Part shown: positions 5,700 to 54,182 of the stretch, in pieces
Layout of the letters: each line of letters starts with the position of its first letter
Position numbering within the stretch: position 1 is the first letter of the stretch
Virus record (IMG/VR): IMGVR_UViG_2585427735_000009
Strand: one strand, 5' to 3'
DNA length: 54,182 nucleotides
DNA from: a virus
Taxonomy: Duplodnaviria; Heunggongvirae; Uroviricota; Caudoviricetes
Notes under the pieces: model-generated
Databases searched by the model: none
Told to the model about the DNA's origin: nothing
Seen by the model: only the letters and a program-made list of their open reading frames with translations
Made by a program: the position numbers and the translations under genes

Positions 5700-7743
5700 A
5701 GTTCCCTCCGTTCCAGACGTTCACATCCAGGCCATGCTGTGCGGTATCATCCACATCAATACTGCGCGCCCGCCAGCCTTCAGGGGCCACAAGCTCCACC
5801 CGTGCGGCGGTTTTCGCGGTGGCCTGTCCGCCGTTTTCGTCACTGCTGCCACGCAGTTTCTGCCAGGCCTGCGTCAGCCAGCCCCCCAGATAATCACCGA
5901 GATAGCTGCCCACCGTGGAACCAATGGCAACCCCGACCGGACCGGCAGCCGCCCCCAGCGCGCCACCGGCGATACTTCCGGCAAGAGAACCCACGGCACC
6001 GGCTTTATCGGCTGCACTGGCGCTGCTGTCCAGCAGTACAGGAGCCGCCATGGCACCGGCCCACAGGGCACCACCACCCAGCCGACCGGCACCACGGAAC
6101 AGCCCGGCAAAACGCCCCAGCCCCATGCGGTTTCCGGCCGCCGTTAGCAGACCACCGGCACGGCTCATCATACGACCGAAGAAGCCCTGTTTACCGGCAC
6201 TCTCCGCCAGTTGCTCACCGGCAGTCACGACGGTCGTGACACCCCGTCCACGTCCGGGGCCGCGTTTTTTACGGCCGCGCACGGTTTTGCCGTCACCGCT
6301 GACCACCACATCCCCGCCACCTGAGGCCAGGCCACCCGCAGGCCAGTTGGTGACCAGCACGGGCTGAACGGCAGCCGGATTTACCCCGGTAAGGAAATTC
6401 AGGAACCGGCCAGCGCGTCCGGGCTGCGTTCCCGGTACAGTGGTCTGCGGTTTGCGGAAGGGCGACGTCAGCACGGAGGTCATCGCCATGCCATAGCGTA
6501 AGGGGGTTGCGCCGAGACGTAATGCCCCCGTCCCCGCAAACCTGAGCACCTTCAGCGCACGGGAGGCGAGATACATATACATCAGGTACTTTGCGGCGGT
6601 CTGCGCACCCTGACCAATACGATCCAGCGCATCGCCATAACCGGCGTCGCGCAGTGCCTGAAGCGTTTCCCTGACTTTCTGAATGACCCGGTAAAAGCCG
6701 GTCGCAGCATCTCTGGCATACTCAAATCCCTGATTCAGAGCTAAGGCCGTCTGTGTGGCCAGCTTATCCTGTAAGCCGCTTTTCTGTGCCGCATCGGCAT
6801 AATCCAGGAAGCCTTTCAGGCTCTTTTTCAGGCTATCAAACGGTCCCTTTGCCATCACCTCGCGGGCAAATCCGTCCCAGACATCGCCCATCATGGACGT
6901 CATTCCCGTCCAGGAATTCATGGCGTTTTTCTGGGCACCTTTTGCCTGTTCGGCCATCACCTGAAATAACAGGCGAATGCTGTCCGGCCCCAGTTTTCCT
7001 TTTTCGCCTTTCTCACGGATGATCTTCTGGTTTACGCCCAGCTTATCGGCCAGTAACTGGTAAACGTTAATCCCGTATCCGGTCAGAATATTGGCGTCCG
7101 CTGCCTGGATACTCTGGCGGGCAAACATCTGTTTGAGTTGCAGGGACGCACCCTGTGCATCTGACAGTGACCAGCCGTGATAGCCGCCCTGATCCTGAAG
7201 CATGGTAATAAAGCGACGGGCTTCCCTGTCACTCATGCCAAACCCGCGACTGGAGGCGTATTCCTGCATAACCCCCGCCAGCCCCCAGGTGGTGTCTTTG
7301 GCGTTCTGTACTGCCCAGGCTTTCACTGCTTCCGTTTTTGCCGTATCGCCATGATTAATGGCGTTGAGACGCAGAATATAGTTCTCCATCTCTGCGGCCG
7401 GGCGGATAAAGGCTTTATTAAAACCGTAGACCGCAGCCCCTCCCGCCAGCATCCCGTAAAGGTTGCTTATCCGCCCGATGGTGCCGGTAATGCTGCCCTG
7501 CAGGCGGTCAAAATCTGACGTTACCGTGCGGATGCTGCCACGAACACCGGCAAGCGTTCGCTGCATACGGGAGCCGACAAGTTCTGTTTCCTGACCGGCC
7601 CGGCGGGCTGCATTTCCAAGACCACCCAGGCCTGTCCTGCCGGAACGGGAGAACGCCCCCAGCTCCTGTGACCACTGGCGGGATTTGGCGGAAATATTGC
7701 CGAGTAAATCGACAATCAGGGAGGCTTTCAGGTTTTTTGCCAT
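5686..7743 (-). CDS. Tail tape measure protein
   Basis: 685-aa ORF, Gly/Ala-rich repetitive segments, located between tail assembly gene and baseplate genes. Confidence 0.85.
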   Translation of the reverse strand: MAKNLKASLIVDLLGNISAKSRQWSQELGAFSRSGRTGLGGLGNAARRAGQETELVGSRMQRTLAGVRGSIRTVTSDFDRLQGSITGTIGRISNLYGMLAGGAAVYGFNKAFIRPAAEMENYILRLNAINHGDTAKTEAVKAWAVQNAKDTTWGLAGVMQEYASSRGFGMSDREARRFITMLQDQGGYHGWSLSDAQGASLQLKQMFARQSIQAADANILTGYGINVYQLLADKLGVNQKIIREKGEKGKLGPDSIRLLFQVMAEQAKGAQKNAMNSWTGMTSMMGDVWDGFAREVMAKGPFDSLKKSLKGFLDYADAAQKSGLQDKLATQTALALNQGFEYARDAATGFYRVIQKVRETLQALRDAGYGDALDRIGQGAQTAAKYLMYMYLASRALKVLRFAGTGALRLGATPLRYGMAMTSVLTSPFRKPQTTVPGTQPGRAGRFLNFLTGVNPAAVQPVLVTNWPAGGLASGGGDVVVSGDGKTVRGRKKRGPGRGRGVTTVVTAGEQLAESAGKQGFFGRMMSRAGGLLTAAGNRMGLGRFAGLFRGAGRLGGGALWAGAMAAPVLLDSSASAADKAGAVGSLAGSIAGGALGAAAGPVGVAIGSTVGSYLGDYLGGWLTQAWQKLRGSSDENGGQATAKTAARVELVAPEGWRARSIDVDDTAQHGLDVNVWNGGNYGLY

Positions 7744-7870
7744 GGGTTACTGCTTCGTTCTGAGAATTTTTTCGGTCTGTCGGCAGTGCCGGTAAAGCTG
7801 CGATAAAGGGAGGTTAAGCGCCCACTCCGGGCCGCTTTTTGTCACCATCCCCAGCACAATTGCGGCTTCT

Positions 7871-8350
7871 TCAATCTGATCCCGGCACTGCATCTGGTCG
7901 CCCCCGTTCAGCGACCAGCTTTCCTGCCATCGCGGAATCAAGCAGGCTTACCGCCGCCATCAGACGGGAGAGATCGCGCTCGCTGAGCTGTCCGATCTGA
8001 CGCGGAGACAATGGCCCCTCAATCTGGCCAACAGCGGCAATCTGACGGCGCAGCAGTGCAATGCCGCGCAGTGCCGGCGAGGCTATCAGAACCGGGCCGC
8101 CATTTCGGGTTTCCATAAGACGCTCGGCCTCGGTTTCCGCGTCAATGCTGTCTTTCGCCGTCAGTTCGCGGAAGGTGACGCGGTATTCACGGGATTCCCC
8201 GAACGGCAGACCGTCGAGCAGATCCACATAGCCGTTCGCCAGCTGTTCAGCCAGCCCGGCGGTGCGGGGATCGCCGTCTTCAAGTACATCCCGGATAGCC
8301 TCCATCACGGCCTCGTCAGAAACCGCCGTTTTTTTCTTACGTGTGGTCAT
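7871..8350 (-). CDS. Tail assembly protein (Mu gp41-like)
   Basis: 159-aa ORF between tail tube and tape measure genes. Confidence 0.5.
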   Translation of the reverse strand: MTTRKKKTAVSDEAVMEAIRDVLEDGDPRTAGLAEQLANGYVDLLDGLPFGESREYRVTFRELTAKDSIDAETEAERLMETRNGGPVLIASPALRGIALLRRQIAAVGQIEGPLSPRQIGQLSERDLSRLMAAVSLLDSAMAGKLVAERGRPDAVPGSD

Positions 8351-46447: not shown

Positions 46448-46656
46448 CGAGATTAAAGACCATTAATTCATATGTGAATTGACAGTTTCATGGCACAGGA
46501 TACGGCTAGCGTGGTTGTCTGTTTTGTGCCAGGGGCGGGCCTAACTAAGTTCACACAACATTGATTATTGAAGATTAGGTCAGAAATAAATAGGTTATTT
46601 TGATAATTTAGTTACGTTAGAATGCCGCAGTGTACAAAGTAAAAATGAGGAATAAT

Positions 46657-48018
46657 ATGACTCGGAGTGAAATAAACGTCTGGGATAAGAGACGAGGCAC
46701 CAATAGTCATCGTGTGGAGGAGATTCGATCTGAAGCTCAGCACGACCTTTCTCGACTGATTCACTCGTCTGCTTTCAGACGATTGCAATCCAAAACACAG
46801 GTTCTTGGTCTGGGTGAAAGTGATTTCTACCGCACACGACTGACTCATTCTATGGAAGTCGCACAAATCGGTTCAGGTCTTCTTGCTAAGCTGAAAATAA
46901 AATATAAAGGTAAAGAGCAAGAGCAATTTTTACCAGATAACGATCTTATGCAGGCAGTATGTCTCGCACATGATATTGGACATCCTCCATTTGGTCACGG
47001 CGGTGAGGTAGCTCTTAACTACTGTATGCAGGATTACGGTGGTTTTGAAGGAAACGGTCAGACACTTCGCATTCTCTCGAAACTAGATAAGTATACCGTT
47101 GAACACGGACTCGATCCTACACGCAGACTTCTGCTAGGCATACTGAAATATCCGGTTAAATACTCGGATCTAGTGGTTACAAAAGACAGAATCCCGGCCA
47201 CTATCGGATCGCCGAACTGGCTCTTTAAGTCATCTGATTTTAAACCTCCAAAATGCTATCTAGATTCAGAATGCGATGTTGTAGAATTTGCTCTTTCACC
47301 ATTTACTGAACAGGATCGGAGGCTTTTTACTTCCGTTGAAGATGGTCAAACTAAATCCGATCATAAAAAAGCTTCTTATAAAGCTCTCGATACAACCATC
47401 ATGGATCTTGCCGATGAAATTTCGTATTCGCTGCACGATTTGGAGGATGCTATTTCTCTCGGAATGGTGACACGAGAAATGTGGATGGAGCATTTCAGTG
47501 AATATGAAACCCTATTTACTAACTGCCATGGAGAAACATTTTCCGCAACATGTGAATCTGTCGCGGATAGCCTTTTTGGTGAAAGTTACAAGAGAAAAGA
47601 GTGCATCGGGATGCTGGTTCACCTGATGATTACAAGCGTTGAGCTTATTACAAAGAATCCAGCATTCGAATGTGGCATGCTCAAATATAATGCGGTCCTT
47701 CCGGAAGCGGTCGAAGCACTACGGTTTAAAATTTTCAAACTGGTCAAAAATAAAGTAATTAAGCATGAAAATGTACAGCAGCTTGAATTCAAGGGACAAA
47801 AGTTGATTGTTGAGCTTTTCGGTGTGCTGGCTAACGATCCGTGTCGGTTTCTACCGGCATCAACGAGGGAAATTTACGAGCGGCAGACTAGCTTGGACGA
47901 GAAGGCTGGTATGCGAGTCATTTGCGACTATGTTTCAGGGATGACTGATGACTATGCAACAAAGCTTTATGAGAAGATCCTTATTCCACGCAAAGGGTCT
48001 ATTTTTGACCATCTCTAA
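46657..48018 (+). CDS. dGTP triphosphohydrolase (Dgt-family HD-domain dGTPase); candidate anti-phage dNTP-depletion enzyme
   Basis: ATG at 46657 with GAGGA RBS; motifs AFRRLQSKTQV, RTRLTHSMEVAQIG, AHDIGHPPFGHGGE, LADEISYSLHDLEDA match Dgt HD-domain signatures as recalled; AT-rich relative to Rac core. Confidence 0.82.
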   Translation: MTRSEINVWDKRRGTNSHRVEEIRSEAQHDLSRLIHSSAFRRLQSKTQVLGLGESDFYRTRLTHSMEVAQIGSGLLAKLKIKYKGKEQEQFLPDNDLMQAVCLAHDIGHPPFGHGGEVALNYCMQDYGGFEGNGQTLRILSKLDKYTVEHGLDPTRRLLLGILKYPVKYSDLVVTKDRIPATIGSPNWLFKSSDFKPPKCYLDSECDVVEFALSPFTEQDRRLFTSVEDGQTKSDHKKASYKALDTTIMDLADEISYSLHDLEDAISLGMVTREMWMEHFSEYETLFTNCHGETFSATCESVADSLFGESYKRKECIGMLVHLMITSVELITKNPAFECGMLKYNAVLPEAVEALRFKIFKLVKNKVIKHENVQQLEFKGQKLIVELFGVLANDPCRFLPASTREIYERQTSLDEKAGMRVICDYVSGMTDDYATKLYEKILIPRKGSIFDHL

Positions 48019-48079
48019 TGCGGCAAGAATGATGCTCTGAGTTCAATTGACCTATAAACATTAACCAAGGCATCTACCA

Positions 48080-48099
48080 GGGGGATATCAAATCCCCCC
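48080..48099 (+). terminator. Hairpin GGGGGAT-ATCAA-ATCCCCC, candidate terminator after dGTPase gene
   Basis: 7-bp G/C-rich stem 62 nt after the dGTPase stop, followed by a weakly T-rich stretch (ATTCTGAATTTGTT). Confidence 0.4.
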
Positions 48100-48428
48100 A
48101 TTCTGAATTTGTTCGTGCAGAATCGGTGAACGTTCTCATCTGAGCGTTAAACGCCAATAATCGTTGATCTACATTGATCATTAATACACCTTAATACCAT
48201 TAGCGTCTTACTCCGTTATGAGAACAAACGCGAACTGACCTGCCCCCAGTATTAGTGACCTTCAGCTACGGTAACTTGTCCGCTTCGTGCCAGAAGCGGA
48301 CATCCATAGAGAAATAAGCGATCAGTTCTTAAATTTGTTGTGATTTTTTGATTTTTTTGTATTCGCAAAGGGATTTGTGTTGGTTGTATAATTACCTAAT
48401 ATTCATACAGTTGAATGGGAGATGTGGG

Positions 48429-49322
48429 ATGAAGTTCTCGTACAGACATGGTTTTGATCCTGAGTATAATAAAAAGCCGATACGGGAAGATGCTCCAGAG
48501 TGGCTTCGCTCTTTATTTTTTGTAACTGTCCTCGATAATTTTTTGTACATTGATGGTGATAGCCGCATTACGAATGATGAGAACAAGCCGTTGGGTATTA
48601 AGGCTTTGATCGAGCGACTTTGCGCAGAGAATGGTCAAGAAACAGATCATGAGGATTTCGATTCATGGTACTGCTATGATGCTTTGAAAGCGCGTTTGCA
48701 ACATATGCGTTGGTTTCAATTTTATGATGCTGTTGAGATTATCGGAGATCTATTAAGAAAAAGAGATGTAGAAAGAGGCCATACTTGGGGTAAGAAGGCA
48801 TTAGAAGACATTACTTTTACATCATATCGTCAGAAATTGAACGAGTTATTCGCATCTCGAAATATTGACTGGAAAATGAATTCTGCTGGTAGGTTAGAAA
48901 CACCACTACCAAATGAATTAGAACAAAAAATCGATGAAACTAACAACTTATTGCAAGACCAGTTTGAACCTGCAAGGAGGCACTATGTGAAAGCCCGGGC
49001 TTTTGCATTAGGTGCGCATAAGGATCCAGAAAATTCCATAAAAGAATCAATAAGTGCAATAGAAAGCATGTGTCGGACTTATTATCCTTCAGCCTCAACC
49101 TTGGGCGATGTATTAAAACTGATGAGAAAAGAAAACACTATCTCACCTATGCTTTTAACGGTGATAGAGAAATTTTACGCTTATACAAATGCAGAGCCAG
49201 CAGTAAGACATGGTAGCAACAAGGTTTCTTCTGTCTTGGAATACGATGCTGAATTCGTGTTGCATATATCAGCAGCATTTATTAGAACAATAATACAAAG
49301 AAAAGCTGTTTTGGATAACTAA
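48429..49322 (+). CDS. Hypothetical protein, possible Abi/HEPN-like abortive-infection candidate
   Basis: ATG at 48429 (MKFSYRHGFDPEYNKK...), about 297 aa, AT-rich; possible R-x6-H motif (RAFALGAH) in C-terminal half; upstream extended -10 TGTATAAT near 48386. Confidence 0.5.
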   Translation: MKFSYRHGFDPEYNKKPIREDAPEWLRSLFFVTVLDNFLYIDGDSRITNDENKPLGIKALIERLCAENGQETDHEDFDSWYCYDALKARLQHMRWFQFYDAVEIIGDLLRKRDVERGHTWGKKALEDITFTSYRQKLNELFASRNIDWKMNSAGRLETPLPNELEQKIDETNNLLQDQFEPARRHYVKARAFALGAHKDPENSIKESISAIESMCRTYYPSASTLGDVLKLMRKENTISPMLLTVIEKFYAYTNAEPAVRHGSNKVSSVLEYDAEFVLHISAAFIRTIIQRKAVLDN

Positions 49323-49562
49323 GTCAGACTTACAGCCAACTGACTGTCTCTTATTATTCAAAACATAATAATGTTAGGTCCGCTTATCGCACATCAGGGA
49401 CAACCATACTCAAATCTCCCACATTGCAGGAGATTTGAGTGTGAACACGTCACCGTGGAACAAAGACTGTATCATCGGTCAAAAAAGACCTGGTTATCTA
49501 GCAAAAACTTTTAACATACCAACAAACTTAATTTATTTAAATGCTATTAATACAACTAATGT

Positions 49563-50789
49563 TTAAAATATATATTTTATATCAACCCAATTTTTAGCAT
49601 TATTGTCAACTAAAGTAACGCTATGTCCATGACTTGAATTTATAGCATCGATTACTGATTGTGATGGGTGTCCATGTGAATGACCATCCGACTGAGCTAT
49701 AAACAAAACATTATCAAAATCCGCAATTATTTTTTGATTGAAATTTAATTCCGAACCATGATGAGGTAATGTCATCACCCTTACCGTTTTAATCACTTTT
49801 GAATAGAATTCAGCCCATTTATTATAATACAATGATGTATTAAGCTTTGAGTCACCTGTTAATAAAACAGATCTAATTCCTTTATCTCTATCAAAGAGAA
49901 AATGTCGCTCAACCCGACTATTTCTAAAACTAAACCACTCACGAGAAGGCTCATTAACAATTTTCATCTCAGCTTCTTGATTATTAATAATCAAGAGATT
50001 GATTGATATTACATTATGATCGCCAGCAAGTTTTAAATAACACTCGCGTAATTTCTTTCTTTCCCCCGTGCTAGTTAATATTTTAAGCATTTTTTTCTTA
50101 CTTAACTCAGTAAAACCATTTTCTATTAACTGCTGACTGAAAATTTCAATTTTCTTACGTGAACGGGGCGGTATCCAAGAAATAAATGACATTAGTGTAT
50201 CAGTTTTGTTTTCCCCAATCCTTTTAACCAACCAACGGTTACATTCAACATCTCCTTTGGAGTCAGATATTTTCATTGGTAAGCTTACAGCGCTATCCTT
50301 AATGTTTTCACTATTAAATATAGGAGGGTCAAAATTATCATCAATATCACAGGGGTAAAGCAAAGATATATCTACCTCAGGCAACCTTGATTTTATCCAT
50401 TTGACAGGATCAATGAGAAATTCCATAAAAAGACCTGACGTAGAATTAGAGCATAGCTCCGATGCAATTAAGTAATAGCTATCATGGATATCTAGGTATG
50501 GTAATACAACCTTGCGTATTTTGTTATCTACAAGCTGACATAAATGGTCAAATCCATTTATATGGTCTGAATCCAAATGAGAGATGTATACCACATCAAT
50601 ATATTTCTCATCAATATTAAAGAGAGATTTAGCCACATCCATCTCCCTACGCAACGCATTTAATTGGTCACTTCCGCAGTCATACACATAACTGTAAAGC
50701 AAACTACCATCCCTTCCCCTCAGTCCGCCTAAACTAAATCCACCCTGGCCAACGGGAAACAATCTTTTATGAAATACTTCTCCGCTCAT
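49563..50789 (-). CDS. Standalone metallo-beta-lactamase-fold hydrolase (ComEC-type motifs), candidate nuclease
   Basis: 408 aa, ATG at 50789 with AAGGA RBS; MBL motifs HLDSDH (HxHxDH), LTGDSKL and LPHHGS; very AT-rich. Confidence 0.7.
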   Translation of the reverse strand: MSGEVFHKRLFPVGQGGFSLGGLRGRDGSLLYSYVYDCGSDQLNALRREMDVAKSLFNIDEKYIDVVYISHLDSDHINGFDHLCQLVDNKIRKVVLPYLDIHDSYYLIASELCSNSTSGLFMEFLIDPVKWIKSRLPEVDISLLYPCDIDDNFDPPIFNSENIKDSAVSLPMKISDSKGDVECNRWLVKRIGENKTDTLMSFISWIPPRSRKKIEIFSQQLIENGFTELSKKKMLKILTSTGERKKLRECYLKLAGDHNVISINLLIINNQEAEMKIVNEPSREWFSFRNSRVERHFLFDRDKGIRSVLLTGDSKLNTSLYYNKWAEFYSKVIKTVRVMTLPHHGSELNFNQKIIADFDNVLFIAQSDGHSHGHPSQSVIDAINSSHGHSVTLVDNNAKNWVDIKYIF

Positions 50790-51503: not shown

Positions 51504-52208
51504 ATGGAAAAAATTAAAACTCCTTGTCCATATTGTAAAGGTGAAAAAAATTGCCACATAATAGGCCATAAAAAAAGAGAATGGAGTGAGGATGATGGGG
51601 GCAACTATTTTTGGGCTGAAAGTGAATACAAATTATTAGAGTGTATGGGGTGCGACGGAATATTTACATATATTAAATCCCGTCACAGTGAAGATTACGA
51701 CATTGAAAGAGATGAGTCAGGCTATGATTGTATGGTATATAACTATCATATATCAACATATCCCACTCAAGAGCAAGAAGAGATTAGACCAACTTGGTTT
51801 GGTGAGACATTAAACAAAGATCGTCAGCTGTATGTAATAATGAACGAAATGTACATCGCATTTCAAAATAAATCATTCATTTTAGCGGCGATTGGACTTA
51901 GAACTATTTTTGACAGAACAGTTGAGGTTCTAAATATTCATCCAGGATATACATTAGGCCAGAAGGTTGACATTCTTAAAGAGGAAGGTTTTATTGGGGA
52001 AACAGAAAGGAGCCAACTTAAAATTGTAACCGAAGCTGGCAACTCAGCTGCACACAGGACATGGGCACCGAACGAAACTGAATTTAAATCGCTTTTGGTA
52101 ATTATAGAAAATTTTGTAATGCGAACAATACTAAAAAATGAGGATATATTTAAGATTACAGAAAAATTACCTGCGAAATATCCAAGACCTCCCAAAAAGC
52201 AAGAATAA
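51504..52208 (+). CDS. Zinc-ribbon protein with DUF4145/HEPN-like C-terminal domain (candidate Abi-type effector)
   Basis: 234 aa; N-terminal CPYC-x-CH ... CMGCDG zinc ribbon; C-terminal AAIGLRTIFDR...GETERSQLKIVTEAGNSAAH resembling the DUF4145 GNxxxH signature as recalled; AT-rich. Confidence 0.55.
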   Translation: MEKIKTPCPYCKGEKNCHIIGHKKREWSEDDGGNYFWAESEYKLLECMGCDGIFTYIKSRHSEDYDIERDESGYDCMVYNYHISTYPTQEQEEIRPTWFGETLNKDRQLYVIMNEMYIAFQNKSFILAAIGLRTIFDRTVEVLNIHPGYTLGQKVDILKEEGFIGETERSQLKIVTEAGNSAAHRTWAPNETEFKSLLVIIENFVMRTILKNEDIFKITEKLPAKYPRPPKKQE

Positions 52209-52704
52209 TGTACGTAAGTGTAAATAGAGCTAAGAGATTATATATTGACTCTGGTTATCTCTATTAGCACATGCTTTTTGTAATGCCTTAACTGATTATT
52301 TAAACTCCTGTCAGCTTTTCGCTCAAAGCGGACTAAAGTGTTGGCTTGTGACTGACTTAGCGCATTTAAGGAAGTGGTGGTGGTGACGGGGTGTTGTGTC
52401 CCATTTCCACAGAATAAATCAGAGAAACTATAGCGGCTGTAATGGCAATCTATGGTCTTGCTATTGCTCTTATGGATCACCTTTCTGATTGATTTCATAT
52501 TGGCGAGGTAACGGGAGTTAAGTAGAATAGCTGCGGGTGCTTGAGGCTGTCTGCCTCGGGCATGAACACCAAAGGCAGATAGAGAAAAGCCCCAGTTAAC
52601 ATTACGCGTCCGGCAAGACGCTTAACATTAATCTGAGGCCACATCTATGCTTTGCATACGTAGATTAGCCTCTTACCGACCAAAAGGTCAAGGAGAAGCA
52701 GGCT

Positions 52705-52860
52705 ATGAAGCAGCAAAAGGCGATGTTAATCACCCTGATCGTCATCTGTTTAACCGTTATAGTGACGGTACTGGTAACGAGGAAAGACCTCTGCGAGGTA
52801 CGAATCCGAACCGACCAGACGGAGGTCGCTGTCTTCACAGCTTACGAACTTGGGGAGTAA
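52705..52860 (+). CDS. hokD: Hok-family membrane toxin (HokD/RelF-like)
   Basis: Hand translation MKQQKAMLITLIVICLTVIVTVLVTRKDLCEVRIRTDQTEVAVFTAYELGE (51 aa); below ORF-track cutoff. Confidence 0.8.
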   Translation: MKQQKAMLITLIVICLTVIVTVLVTRKDLCEVRIRTDQTEVAVFTAYELGE

Positions 52861-53053: not shown

Positions 53054-54166
53054 TTAGTTCTTCTTTTCGGATCCGGCACTTCTGGGGGGGAAATCCAGCG
53101 ATGGCTGGATTATGTCGTCAATTAAAAATGCGGCGAGTAGATTAGCAAATATCCACGCTTTCGCGAGTTCAGGTTCCTTTGCACGCAAAGCATCCAGGTG
53201 CAGCAAACTTTTGAGCCGCTTAAAAGCCAGTTCAATTTGCCATCGCAGACGGTAACAATCAGCCACTTGCTCTGCTGAATATTCATCTTCCGGTAATGAT
53301 GTTAGCAATAGCACATGGCCCGCTGCTTCCAGCGTTTCCGCCTGAACTACTCGTCCTTTTCGACGATTCTCGCTGAGCAGTCGGGTTTTACTGATTAATG
53401 CTTTTTCGGGAGGAAGTGATACGGCAATGAGACGTGCCGGAAAGGGAGCTCCGGCTTTTTTATTACCTGAATTGCCTATCATTACAGTGGTTTCACCGTT
53501 CTTACCGCAATCCAGCCCGCGCAGAAAACCCATCATGTCAAAGCGCATTCCTTCTGCAGTTAACCAGCGCAATCCTCGCCAGTGAACCCGGACGATATAA
53601 TCAGCTTCTCCAAAAGCAAGTGAGCGGATACATTCGGGACGCGAACCGAATCCCCGGTCAGCAATGCGTATCTCGTCTGCCGTTTGCGCAAATCGGTCCA
53701 GCCGTTCAGCGTCTCTGCTGTCGGTTAGCTCAAAATCAGTGAACTGACAGGTATGAGGATCATATCCCATATGTAGTCGCCATTCAGCGCTGCCGCCCCC
53801 GGGCGCACTGATTGCTGTTCCATCGACAAGACGCAATCTCTTTCCGCTTGTACAACCCGTAACTGCGGCGCGTACAGCAAGTGTTTGTGCGGCAAGTATG
53901 CCAAACCAGTCGGCGGCATTCCGCAGCCGCTTCAGGAGAGCCACGTCAGATAATGTTGCAACGTCATGGAGCTGAGCCCATGCAGTGACTTCACGTAATG
54001 ACATCCCCCCGGGGCCGTAAGCCAGCCCCAGACGTAGCAGAGTTGCAGCATCACGAATTTCGCGGCGGCGGGTTAGAGCCCCGGCATTACGTGCCGAAGT
54101 ATCCAGTTCTTCGGGCTTACCAATATGGGCCAGAATTGCTGACCAGTTATCGTGAGAGTAATTCAT
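53054..54166 (-). CDS. IS186 transposase (IS4 family, DDE)
   Basis: ATG at 54166 (MNYSHDNWSAILAHIGKPEELDTSARNAG...), 370 aa. Confidence 0.85.
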   Translation of the reverse strand: MNYSHDNWSAILAHIGKPEELDTSARNAGALTRRREIRDAATLLRLGLAYGPGGMSLREVTAWAQLHDVATLSDVALLKRLRNAADWFGILAAQTLAVRAAVTGCTSGKRLRLVDGTAISAPGGGSAEWRLHMGYDPHTCQFTDFELTDSRDAERLDRFAQTADEIRIADRGFGSRPECIRSLAFGEADYIVRVHWRGLRWLTAEGMRFDMMGFLRGLDCGKNGETTVMIGNSGNKKAGAPFPARLIAVSLPPEKALISKTRLLSENRRKGRVVQAETLEAAGHVLLLTSLPEDEYSAEQVADCYRLRWQIELAFKRLKSLLHLDALRAKEPELAKAWIFANLLAAFLIDDIIQPSLDFPPRSAGSEKKN

Positions 54167-54182
54167 CGGCACGTTAAATCAT

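Follow-up and report, generated by a model that had tools for sequence, protein, structure and literature searches.

The gene and its putative expression signals

The window, that is, the whole 54,182-nt stretch of viral DNA analyzed here (IMG/VR record IMGVR_UViG_2585427735_000009), carries on its plus strand a genuine open reading frame for a 297-residue protein, which begins with an ATG at 48429 and ends with a stop codon at 49320-49322. Reading frame, translation and RefSeq coding sequence agree with one another and with an earlier note on this DNA, in which a protein of about 297 residues had been placed at 48429-49322. The same 894-nt coding sequence is present in ten complete E. coli genomes, where RefSeq lists it as 'hypothetical protein'. 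We favored the ATG at 48429 over an upstream TTG at 48348 as the start codon, because homologues of the protein keep its N-terminal sequence MKFSxRxGFDP. The coding sequence and the signals in front of it are as follows:

48429-49322, plus strand: coding sequence, 297 residues, PDC-S32/AbiJ-NTD4 domain-containing protein family (open reading frame, translation and PADLOC match)
48417-48421, plus strand: Shine-Dalgarno sequence GGGAG, 7 nt 5' of the ATG (from the sequence; also conserved in Dickeya)
48385-48392, plus strand: TGTATAAT, a promoter-like element of the extended -10 type whose -35 is weak (read from the sequence; invariant in Dickeya, where the surroundings are unrelated)

A promoter-like element of the gene's own had been proposed near position 48386, and TGTATAAT bears this out, as it is conserved together with about 70 nt around it 5' of the Dickeya orthologue; TTGTATAATT, which contains the extended -10, falls inside this conserved upstream stretch. 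The element was not listed in a consensus sigma-70 scan because its -35 is poor, and the scan itself returned counts no higher than those obtained in shuffled sequences. We hence treat TGTATAAT as a putative promoter element, cross-species conservation being its one line of support.

Prophage setting in E. coli

In E. coli, the host element is a Rac-like lambdoid prophage integrated at ttcA, with intR, xisR, recET, kilR and ydaV present. The gene occupies a slot 3' of the replication genes (ydaV, DUF1627, DUF977) and 5' of hok and nin-type genes. GC content drops to 0.34-0.44 across about 46-53 kb of the window, as compared with 0.51-0.53 on both flanks, and the gene thus sits, as previously described, in an AT-rich cargo block, which extends from about 46.6 to 52.6 kb. 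The dGTPase reported as its neighbor was likewise confirmed: the upstream gene, separated from it by 410 nt, encodes an anti-phage dGTPase (NF041026, 559.6 bits). The other E. coli neighbors are a convergent MBL-fold gene and a DUF4145 gene, and a hok/sok module lies within the same AT-rich block. The 297-residue protein is rare in this species, its gene being found in 10 of 5426 complete genomes, in all cases on the chromosome and with at least 99.8% identity.

Orthologue contexts and cassette boundaries

Comparison with Dickeya, whose orthologue shares 86% protein identity, delimited the conserved DNA on both sides. Upstream, identity to the Dickeya sequence amounts to about 92% over the roughly 70 nt between about 48360 and the ATG and collapses further 5'; downstream, about 60 nt following the stop codon are conserved, with divergence from about 49378. 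As conservation ends about 70 nt 5' and about 60 nt 3' of the gene, the mobile unit is a single-gene cassette of about 1 kb:

48360-49378, plus strand: self-contained mobile cassette of promoter-like element, coding sequence and short 3' tail (from the Dickeya comparison)

The orthologues are found in surroundings unrelated to one another, in mobile-element cargo and defence neighborhoods. The Dickeya gene lies in a conjugative-element/ICE-like region with TraD, MobA, H-NS and YafO/Phd, the Klebsiella gene in a small islet, and the P. aeruginosa gene at the end of a P2/phiCTX-like prophage, adjoining the portal gene. A metagenome contig places it in a TA-rich region with HicB/PIN nearby, and in Pantoea it is part of an integrase/PemK/AAA_21 island. 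Plasmid-borne homologues occur in Rahnella, Yersinia, Enterobacter, Pantoea, Piscirickettsia and Leptospira. Across the Dickeya, Klebsiella, P. aeruginosa, metagenome and Pantoea contexts, no partner gene is conserved.

These comparisons bear directly on whether the protein might belong to a multi-gene system together with the dGTPase and/or the convergent MBL-fold and DUF4145 proteins. All four genes carry defence-like annotations, and in 9-10 E. coli genomes they are found together as one block, with an identity of 99.7% or more, as would be expected of such a system. The dGTPase, however, is far commoner and occurs in about 800 E. coli genomes that lack the 297-residue protein, while the Dickeya, Klebsiella, Pseudomonas, Pantoea and metagenome orthologues have no dGTPase, MBL or DUF4145 neighbors. 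Furthermore, the gene is set apart by the 410-nt gap, its own promoter-like element and the convergent orientation of the MBL gene, and the cassette boundaries leave all neighbors outside. We therefore rate a multi-gene system as very improbable; in particular, the context comparison and the cassette boundaries led us to reject both the dGTPase and the MBL gene as operon members or partners.

A toxin-antitoxin (TA) or addiction module, in which the protein would stabilize its mobile element or be held by an unrecognised antitoxin, deserves somewhat more weight, but is still quite improbable in our view. HEPN proteins are common as TA toxins, AbiV and AbiF being type III TA systems (PMC13064643), TA genes are often located near the homologues (YafO/Phd in Dickeya, HicB/PIN on the metagenome contig, PemK in Pantoea) and the hok/sok module shares the AT-rich block. 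The toxin AbiV is paired with an RNA antitoxin (PMC13064643), whereas none such was found beside the 297-residue gene: the region 47950-49650 contains neither a tandem-repeat array nor an Rfam family, its repeats being limited to two-copy matches of 8-10 nt, and the adjacent tandem-repeat RNA that marks type III systems of the AbiV/AbiF type is thus missing. Nor is any neighboring open reading frame conserved across contexts, and flanks of about 70 and 60 nt leave no space for a second gene within the cassette.

Domain architecture and family

The protein matched two PADLOC models of PDC-S32, a single-gene system defined on full-length proteins, namely PDLC04997 (E = 1.6e-33, covering residues 1-291 of 297) and PDLC04996 (E = 2.7e-26). 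PDC-S32 is a computational candidate system, and its members go by the name 'AbiJ-NTD4 domain-containing protein' at NCBI. We found 128 homologues, including a 99%-identical cluster of 193 member sequences; all 128 diverse relatives match the PDC-S32 models, and the query has the two-domain architecture of this family. Within the family, the 297-residue protein represents a divergent gammaproteobacterial subclade, scoring 114.7 bits as compared with a best E-value of 3.4e-121 among the relatives. The two domains are:

48429-48938, plus strand: AbiJ-NTD4 domain, spanning residues 1-170 and made up of six helices and short strands (PF18863; AF2 model, pLDDT 85)
48957-49316, plus strand: HEPN-fold domain, residues ~177-296, with helices 177-194, 200-218, 225-235, 240-260 and 271-296

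For the query itself, the PF18863 match (residues 1-170, E = 3.8e-8) is borderline, its 34.4 bits barely exceeding the cut-off of 34, but the same domain is detected in 40 of 40 close and 125 of 128 distant relatives, with a best E-value of 8.8e-39. As the N-terminal half matches 'AbiJ N-terminal domain 4' (PF18863), the AbiJ-like architecture that the earlier note had put forward as a hypothesis is correct. The 2013 definition of AbiJ-NTD4 has this domain joined to an AbiJ-type HEPN domain, and a sensing or restraining role was proposed there for AbiJ N-terminal domains in general (PMC3710099); in the present protein, we presume it to be a sensor or regulatory module. The combination of AbiJ-NTD4 with an AbiJ-type HEPN domain has thus been catalogued computationally since 2013, and the family is already a PADLOC candidate. 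No NCBIfam model matches the protein, and the one match among PHROGs is marginal (E = 0.0096) and concerns a family that has no known function. We are all but certain of the architecture and the family assignment.

An adjacent Arg-His pair in the HEPN-fold domain

HEPN RNases are among the commonest effectors of bacterial immunity and are recognized by an Rx4-6H motif. The C-terminal domain of the 297-residue protein shows the fold of the HEPN superfamily, with which the earlier note had considered it compatible. Searching a profile of this domain against 1.84 billion cluster representatives yielded 4128 matches at E <= 1e-3, 2944 at E <= 1e-10 and 46 at E <= 1e-30, while a sequence search of the PDB with the family profile gave no match at E <= 10. 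Conservation was counted in two sets, an alignment of 40 homologues for the close clade (23-86% identity) and, for the wider family, 128 of the best matches of the C-terminal profile, reaching down to about 20% identity.

The motif originally proposed for this protein was the R-x6-H string RAFALGAH:

48996-49019, plus strand: RAFALGAH, R190 to H197, without function as a motif (arginine at 190 in 15 of 40 and histidine at 197 in 9 of 40 homologues; chance-level)

The string does exist, in a largely helical region of a protein with AbiJ-like architecture, and could accordingly be read as the active site of an AbiJ-family HEPN RNase. The helical context holds for R190, which lies within predicted helix 177-194, but not for H197, which the structure model places in the loop that follows. 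Neither residue is conserved, and when the protein is shuffled with its composition preserved, 83% of the shuffles contain one or more Rx4-6H strings (mean 1.7, observed 2). The two observed strings start at residues 112 and 190, both away from the end of helix 3, where the catalytic HEPN motif is located (PMC3710099). Because RAFALGAH is poorly conserved, at chance level and located in helix 1 and the following loop, and because the protein matches no AbiJ or Abi_C model, the string was rejected as the active site, and an RNase built on it is extremely improbable. Of the two things on which the earlier note had staked its reading, conservation of the R and H residues and a profile-level similarity to HEPN/Abi proteins, the first therefore failed, while the second was found in both profile and fold searches.

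Conservation converges on other residues. Invariant across the 40-sequence alignment are K188, A189, D199, E201, N202, I204, K205 and E206, followed by S209, E212, L225, G226, R260, H261 and I285; in the wider set, A274 is retained in 128 of 128 relatives. Three elements stand out:

49206-49214, plus strand: adjacent R260-H261 pair (R260 in 127 of 128, H261 in 128 of 128 wider relatives)
49023-49064, plus strand: helix-2 motif D199-P-E-N202-S-I-K205-E206-S-I-S-A-I-E212 (N202, K205 and E206 in 128 of 128, D199 and E212 in 127 of 128)
48975-48983, plus strand: R183-x-H185 in helix 1 (H185 in 39 of 40 close and 122 of 128 distant relatives; R183 in 38 of 40 close relatives, variable more widely)

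At the junction between helix 3 and the loop that leads to helix 4, no Rx4-6H is found; R260 and H261 stand there side by side, and only 2 of 127 relatives carry a histidine four to seven positions after the R260 position. In the structure model, R260 closes a short helix (257-260) that continues helix 240-255, and H261 begins the loop to the last helix, so that the pair occupies the structural position of the HEPN Rx4-6H motif. Helix 200-218 contains E201-x3-K205, matching the position of the Ex3[KR] element described for HEPN helix 2 (PMC3710099), although E201 is kept in 40 of 40 sequences of the close clade as compared with 50 of 128 in the wider family. The family thus keeps a HEPN-like polar constellation, but with arginine and histidine adjacent.

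Since the Rx4-6H spacing is absent, RNase activity of the 297-residue protein cannot be assumed. The missing spacing also lends some plausibility to a non-nuclease HEPN domain, that is, an RNA-, nucleotide- or protein-binding module akin to MtlR or motif-less HEPN toxins, acting through binding, sequestration or other chemistry. That eight polar residues are so extremely conserved speaks against a non-catalytic role, and we consider such a role unlikely. By analogy with other HEPN proteins, RNase chemistry through R260/H261 appears conceivable, with chances that are nearly balanced.

Relation to AbiJ and Abi_C

The best-studied comparison is SadR, an Abi_C protein of S. aureus and single-stranded RNA RNase, in which the sequence RNEYGDAH (R225, N226, H232) is needed for both RNase activity and defence (PMC13590631). 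A canonical Abi_C set was assembled by scanning genomes with the back-translated RNEYGDAH motif and expanding the result; the SadR-type proteins recovered in this way are indeed Abi_C (E = 2e-21 and 6e-25), and the R-[N]-xn-H spacer comprises five residues in 28 and six residues in 2 of 30 non-redundant sequences. The R-[polar]-x3-5-H pattern exemplified by SadR is absent from the 297-residue protein, which reads VRHGS instead. Like the PDC-S32 proteins, AbiJ/Abi_C members, among them the lactococcal AbiJ prototype and SadR, are single proteins that join a variable N-terminal domain to a C-terminal HEPN domain, and both groups have a 'D-P-E-x-A-I…E' helix in common, corresponding to the helix-2 motif of PDC-S32. 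They differ in that AbiJ/Abi_C proteins carry R-[N]-x5-H where the PDC-S32 family has adjacent R-H, and in that N202, K205 and E206 are invariant in the PDC-S32 relatives, but not in Abi_C.

Profile searches separated the two groups. Neither Pfam Abi_C (PF14355) nor PADLOC AbiJ (PDLC02347) matches the 297-residue protein at E <= 1. Abi_C was touched by 4 of 40 close and 5 of 128 wider relatives, none of which reached the 24-bit threshold (the best scored 21.9 bits), and the AbiJ model matched none of the 128 relatives as opposed to 10 of 10 canonical proteins (E down to 8e-83), none of which matches PDC-S32. With no profile match and a complete partition between PDC-S32 and AbiJ, membership of AbiJ/Abi_C proper was rejected. 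This partition agrees with the SadR study, in which AbiJ-NTD4 was found on merely 3 of 2815 Abi_C proteins (PMC13590631). What survives of the AbiJ-like hypothesis is therefore the architecture, AbiJ-NTD4 plus HEPN, and not the membership.

More remote relatedness was assessed by profile-profile alignment. Against canonical Abi_C, hhalign gave a weak but collinear alignment (E = 1.4e-3, probability 18%, 100 columns) that pairs DPENSIKESISAIES with DSEDAITSAKSMVES and AEPAV------RHGS with GLDEVRNEYGDAHGK, setting H261-G262 on SadR H232-G233 with a six-residue gap. Taken at face value, this alignment suggests a collapse of the loop by six residues that brought the arginine beside H-G. With richer profiles, hhalign probability was 9% and the register differed. 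The canonical HMM matched 115 of 128 relatives collinearly (E-values down to 5e-5, in a database of 128 sequences), and HMMER supported the helix-1/2 correspondence, yet moved the catalytic loop by about three residues relative to hhalign. Because the similarity is weak, though collinear, and its register differs among methods, we grade remote homology of the PDC-S32 HEPN domain to Abi_C as likely only. An exact equivalence of R260/H261 with SadR R225/H232 is no more than possible, as hhalign, hhalign with richer profiles and HMMER give three different registers.

Proposed mode of action

We propose that the gene, part of the prophage cargo, encodes a mobile immunity candidate that would act alone, as a single protein of 297 residues. 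AbiJ-NTD4 would sense a phage cue and/or keep the enzyme inactive, a sensor role that we purely infer. Sensing of a phage component would then lead to dimerization or oligomerization of the HEPN domain, in analogy to SadR, HepS and other HEPN Abi proteins, and the paired domains would form an RNase site from their R-H dyads, in place of Rx4-6H. Once activated, the HEPN effector would cleave cellular or phage RNA, as SadR and HepS do by means of canonical motifs, leading to translation stop and an abortive-infection type outcome. From genomic context and the candidate list, an anti-phage role of the protein is probable; the composite picture of an AbiJ-NTD4 sensor and a HEPN R-H effector providing abortive-infection-type immunity on their own is one that we favor slightly.

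Other HEPN systems offer partial parallels. HepS, a solo HEPN Abi protein of the Gifsy-1 prophage (PDB 9oik), is found in a comparable accessory slot of a lambdoid prophage (PMC13043305), but has a canonical Rx4H (R100-H105), no AbiJ-NTD4 and no detectable sequence relationship to the 297-residue protein. In AF0298-type HEPN-T and AbiV proteins, an alternative histidine is supplied by an insert between helices 2 and 3, whereas here the histidine directly follows the arginine.

A bolder version of the proposal, which we deem rather unlikely, would make PDC-S32 a distinct and very large class of HEPN immune effectors, in which an R-H dyad replaces a collapsed Rx4-6H loop and a death-fold-like AbiJ-NTD4, as obligate partner domain, drives trigger-induced homotypic assembly and thereby brings the HEPN domains together. 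The invariant N, K and E of helix 2 may then support the R-H dyad in a new HEPN active-site configuration, and AbiJ-NTD4 may be a CARD/PYD-like six-helix bundle, a bacterial parallel to immune signaling driven by CARD and PYD domains.

Implications

The searchable literature yielded no experiments on any PDC-S32, AbiJ-NTD4 or PF18863 member. Three aspects appear undescribed there: the separateness of the family from AbiJ/Abi_C, the family-wide absence of Rx4-6H together with an invariant adjacent R-H, and the nature of the E. coli gene as a prophage cargo cassette of about 1 kb bearing a promoter-like element. Present tools half-see the family, with Pfam covering its N-terminal domain only, RefSeq labeling the E. 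coli protein 'hypothetical protein' and PADLOC listing the family as a candidate. The 297-residue gene is a tractable representative of more than 4000 clusters at 50% identity, spread over many phyla and over prophages, plasmids and ICE-like elements.

If the protein does protect against phage, a large candidate defence family would be validated, and lambdoid prophages would provide another example of immunity carried as cargo. If R260/H261 proved catalytic, what counts as a functional HEPN active site would have to be defined more broadly, and motif screens that require Rx4-6H would therefore need revision. If no protection is seen, the family would serve as a warning against inferring defence from a HEPN fold and island context alone. 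Finally, relatives are also present in sequenced phages, where they are distant and correspond to the C-terminal part only.

A second HEPN-type gene in the cargo block

The cargo block that carries the AbiJ-NTD4/HEPN gene holds several further genes, which are given here together with the two hairpins around the cassette (the gene with its promoter-like element and short 3' tail).

Features in the neighbourhood of the AbiJ-NTD4/HEPN gene
46630-48018, plus strand: anti-phage dGTPase (NF041026, 559.6 bits; PADLOC dGTPase, E 1.3e-144)
48277-48302: hairpin with a perfect 10-bp GC-rich stem (TGTCCGCTTC/GAAGCGGACA), 260 nt past the dGTPase stop
49405-49443: hairpin in the gap between the AbiJ-NTD4/HEPN and MBL-fold genes, which converge; its 15-nt arms are 93% complementary
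49563-50789, minus strand: MBL-fold protein, 408 aa, convergent with the AbiJ-NTD4/HEPN gene
51504-52208, plus strand: DUF4145 protein (PF13643, E 3.2e-11)
52535-52860, plus strand: hok/sok type I toxin-antitoxin module (Rfam and ORF)
53054-54172, minus strand: 372-aa ORF, next after hok

As DUF4145 is among the HEPN families listed in PMC3710099, the PF13643 match means that the cargo block encodes two proteins of HEPN type. Its N-terminus contains a zinc-ribbon-like CxxC…CxxC segment, and the protein also matches phrog_1305, annotated as 'DNA binding protein' (E 4.9e-29).

The 408-aa MBL-fold protein showed weak similarity only, and this to defence-associated MBL proteins (PADLOC LmuA, E 2.7e-12; Avs1a; DRT-associated MBL), and scored 23.7 bits with the NCBIfam model 6A-MBL, for which the cut-off is 220. 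We consider it a further, uncharacterised candidate member of the defence island. On the upstream side, the dGTPase gene was found in about 800 E. coli genomes, most of which lack the AbiJ-NTD4/HEPN gene.

The cassette is flanked on both sides by strong hairpins. These lack a T-tract and fall beyond the limits of the stretch conserved with Dickeya.

Relatives in other phages and prophages

In P. aeruginosa (loci L006-L008), the homologue, encoded at 7001-7894, is located at the extreme end of a P2/phiCTX-like prophage, directly adjoining the portal gene in convergent orientation; this position is a classic moron slot. Five matches to the C-terminal-domain profile (P0125, P0142, P0145, P0153 and P0206; 110-139 aa) comprise the RH-type HEPN domain alone, without NTD4, and one relative is encoded at the end of the Rhizobium phage RHEph01 genome (42512-42907). 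These short proteins may represent solo versions, fragments or phage-borne decoys.

Downstream end of the block and base composition

The toxin-antitoxin module consists of an Rfam sok match (52535-52710, 105 bits) and a Hok/Gef-family ORF (52705-52860). The 372-aa ORF, which we take to be transposase-like, may be an insertion particular to the window's strain; in strain WGI31CT, nin-type genes (DUF1367, DUF1364, DUF1133) come directly after hok. Finally, GC content is markedly higher over roughly the initial 23 kb (1-23000; 0.51-0.61, mostly 0.56-0.61) than in the remainder of the window (0.34-0.55), suggesting a separate module or origin for this part.
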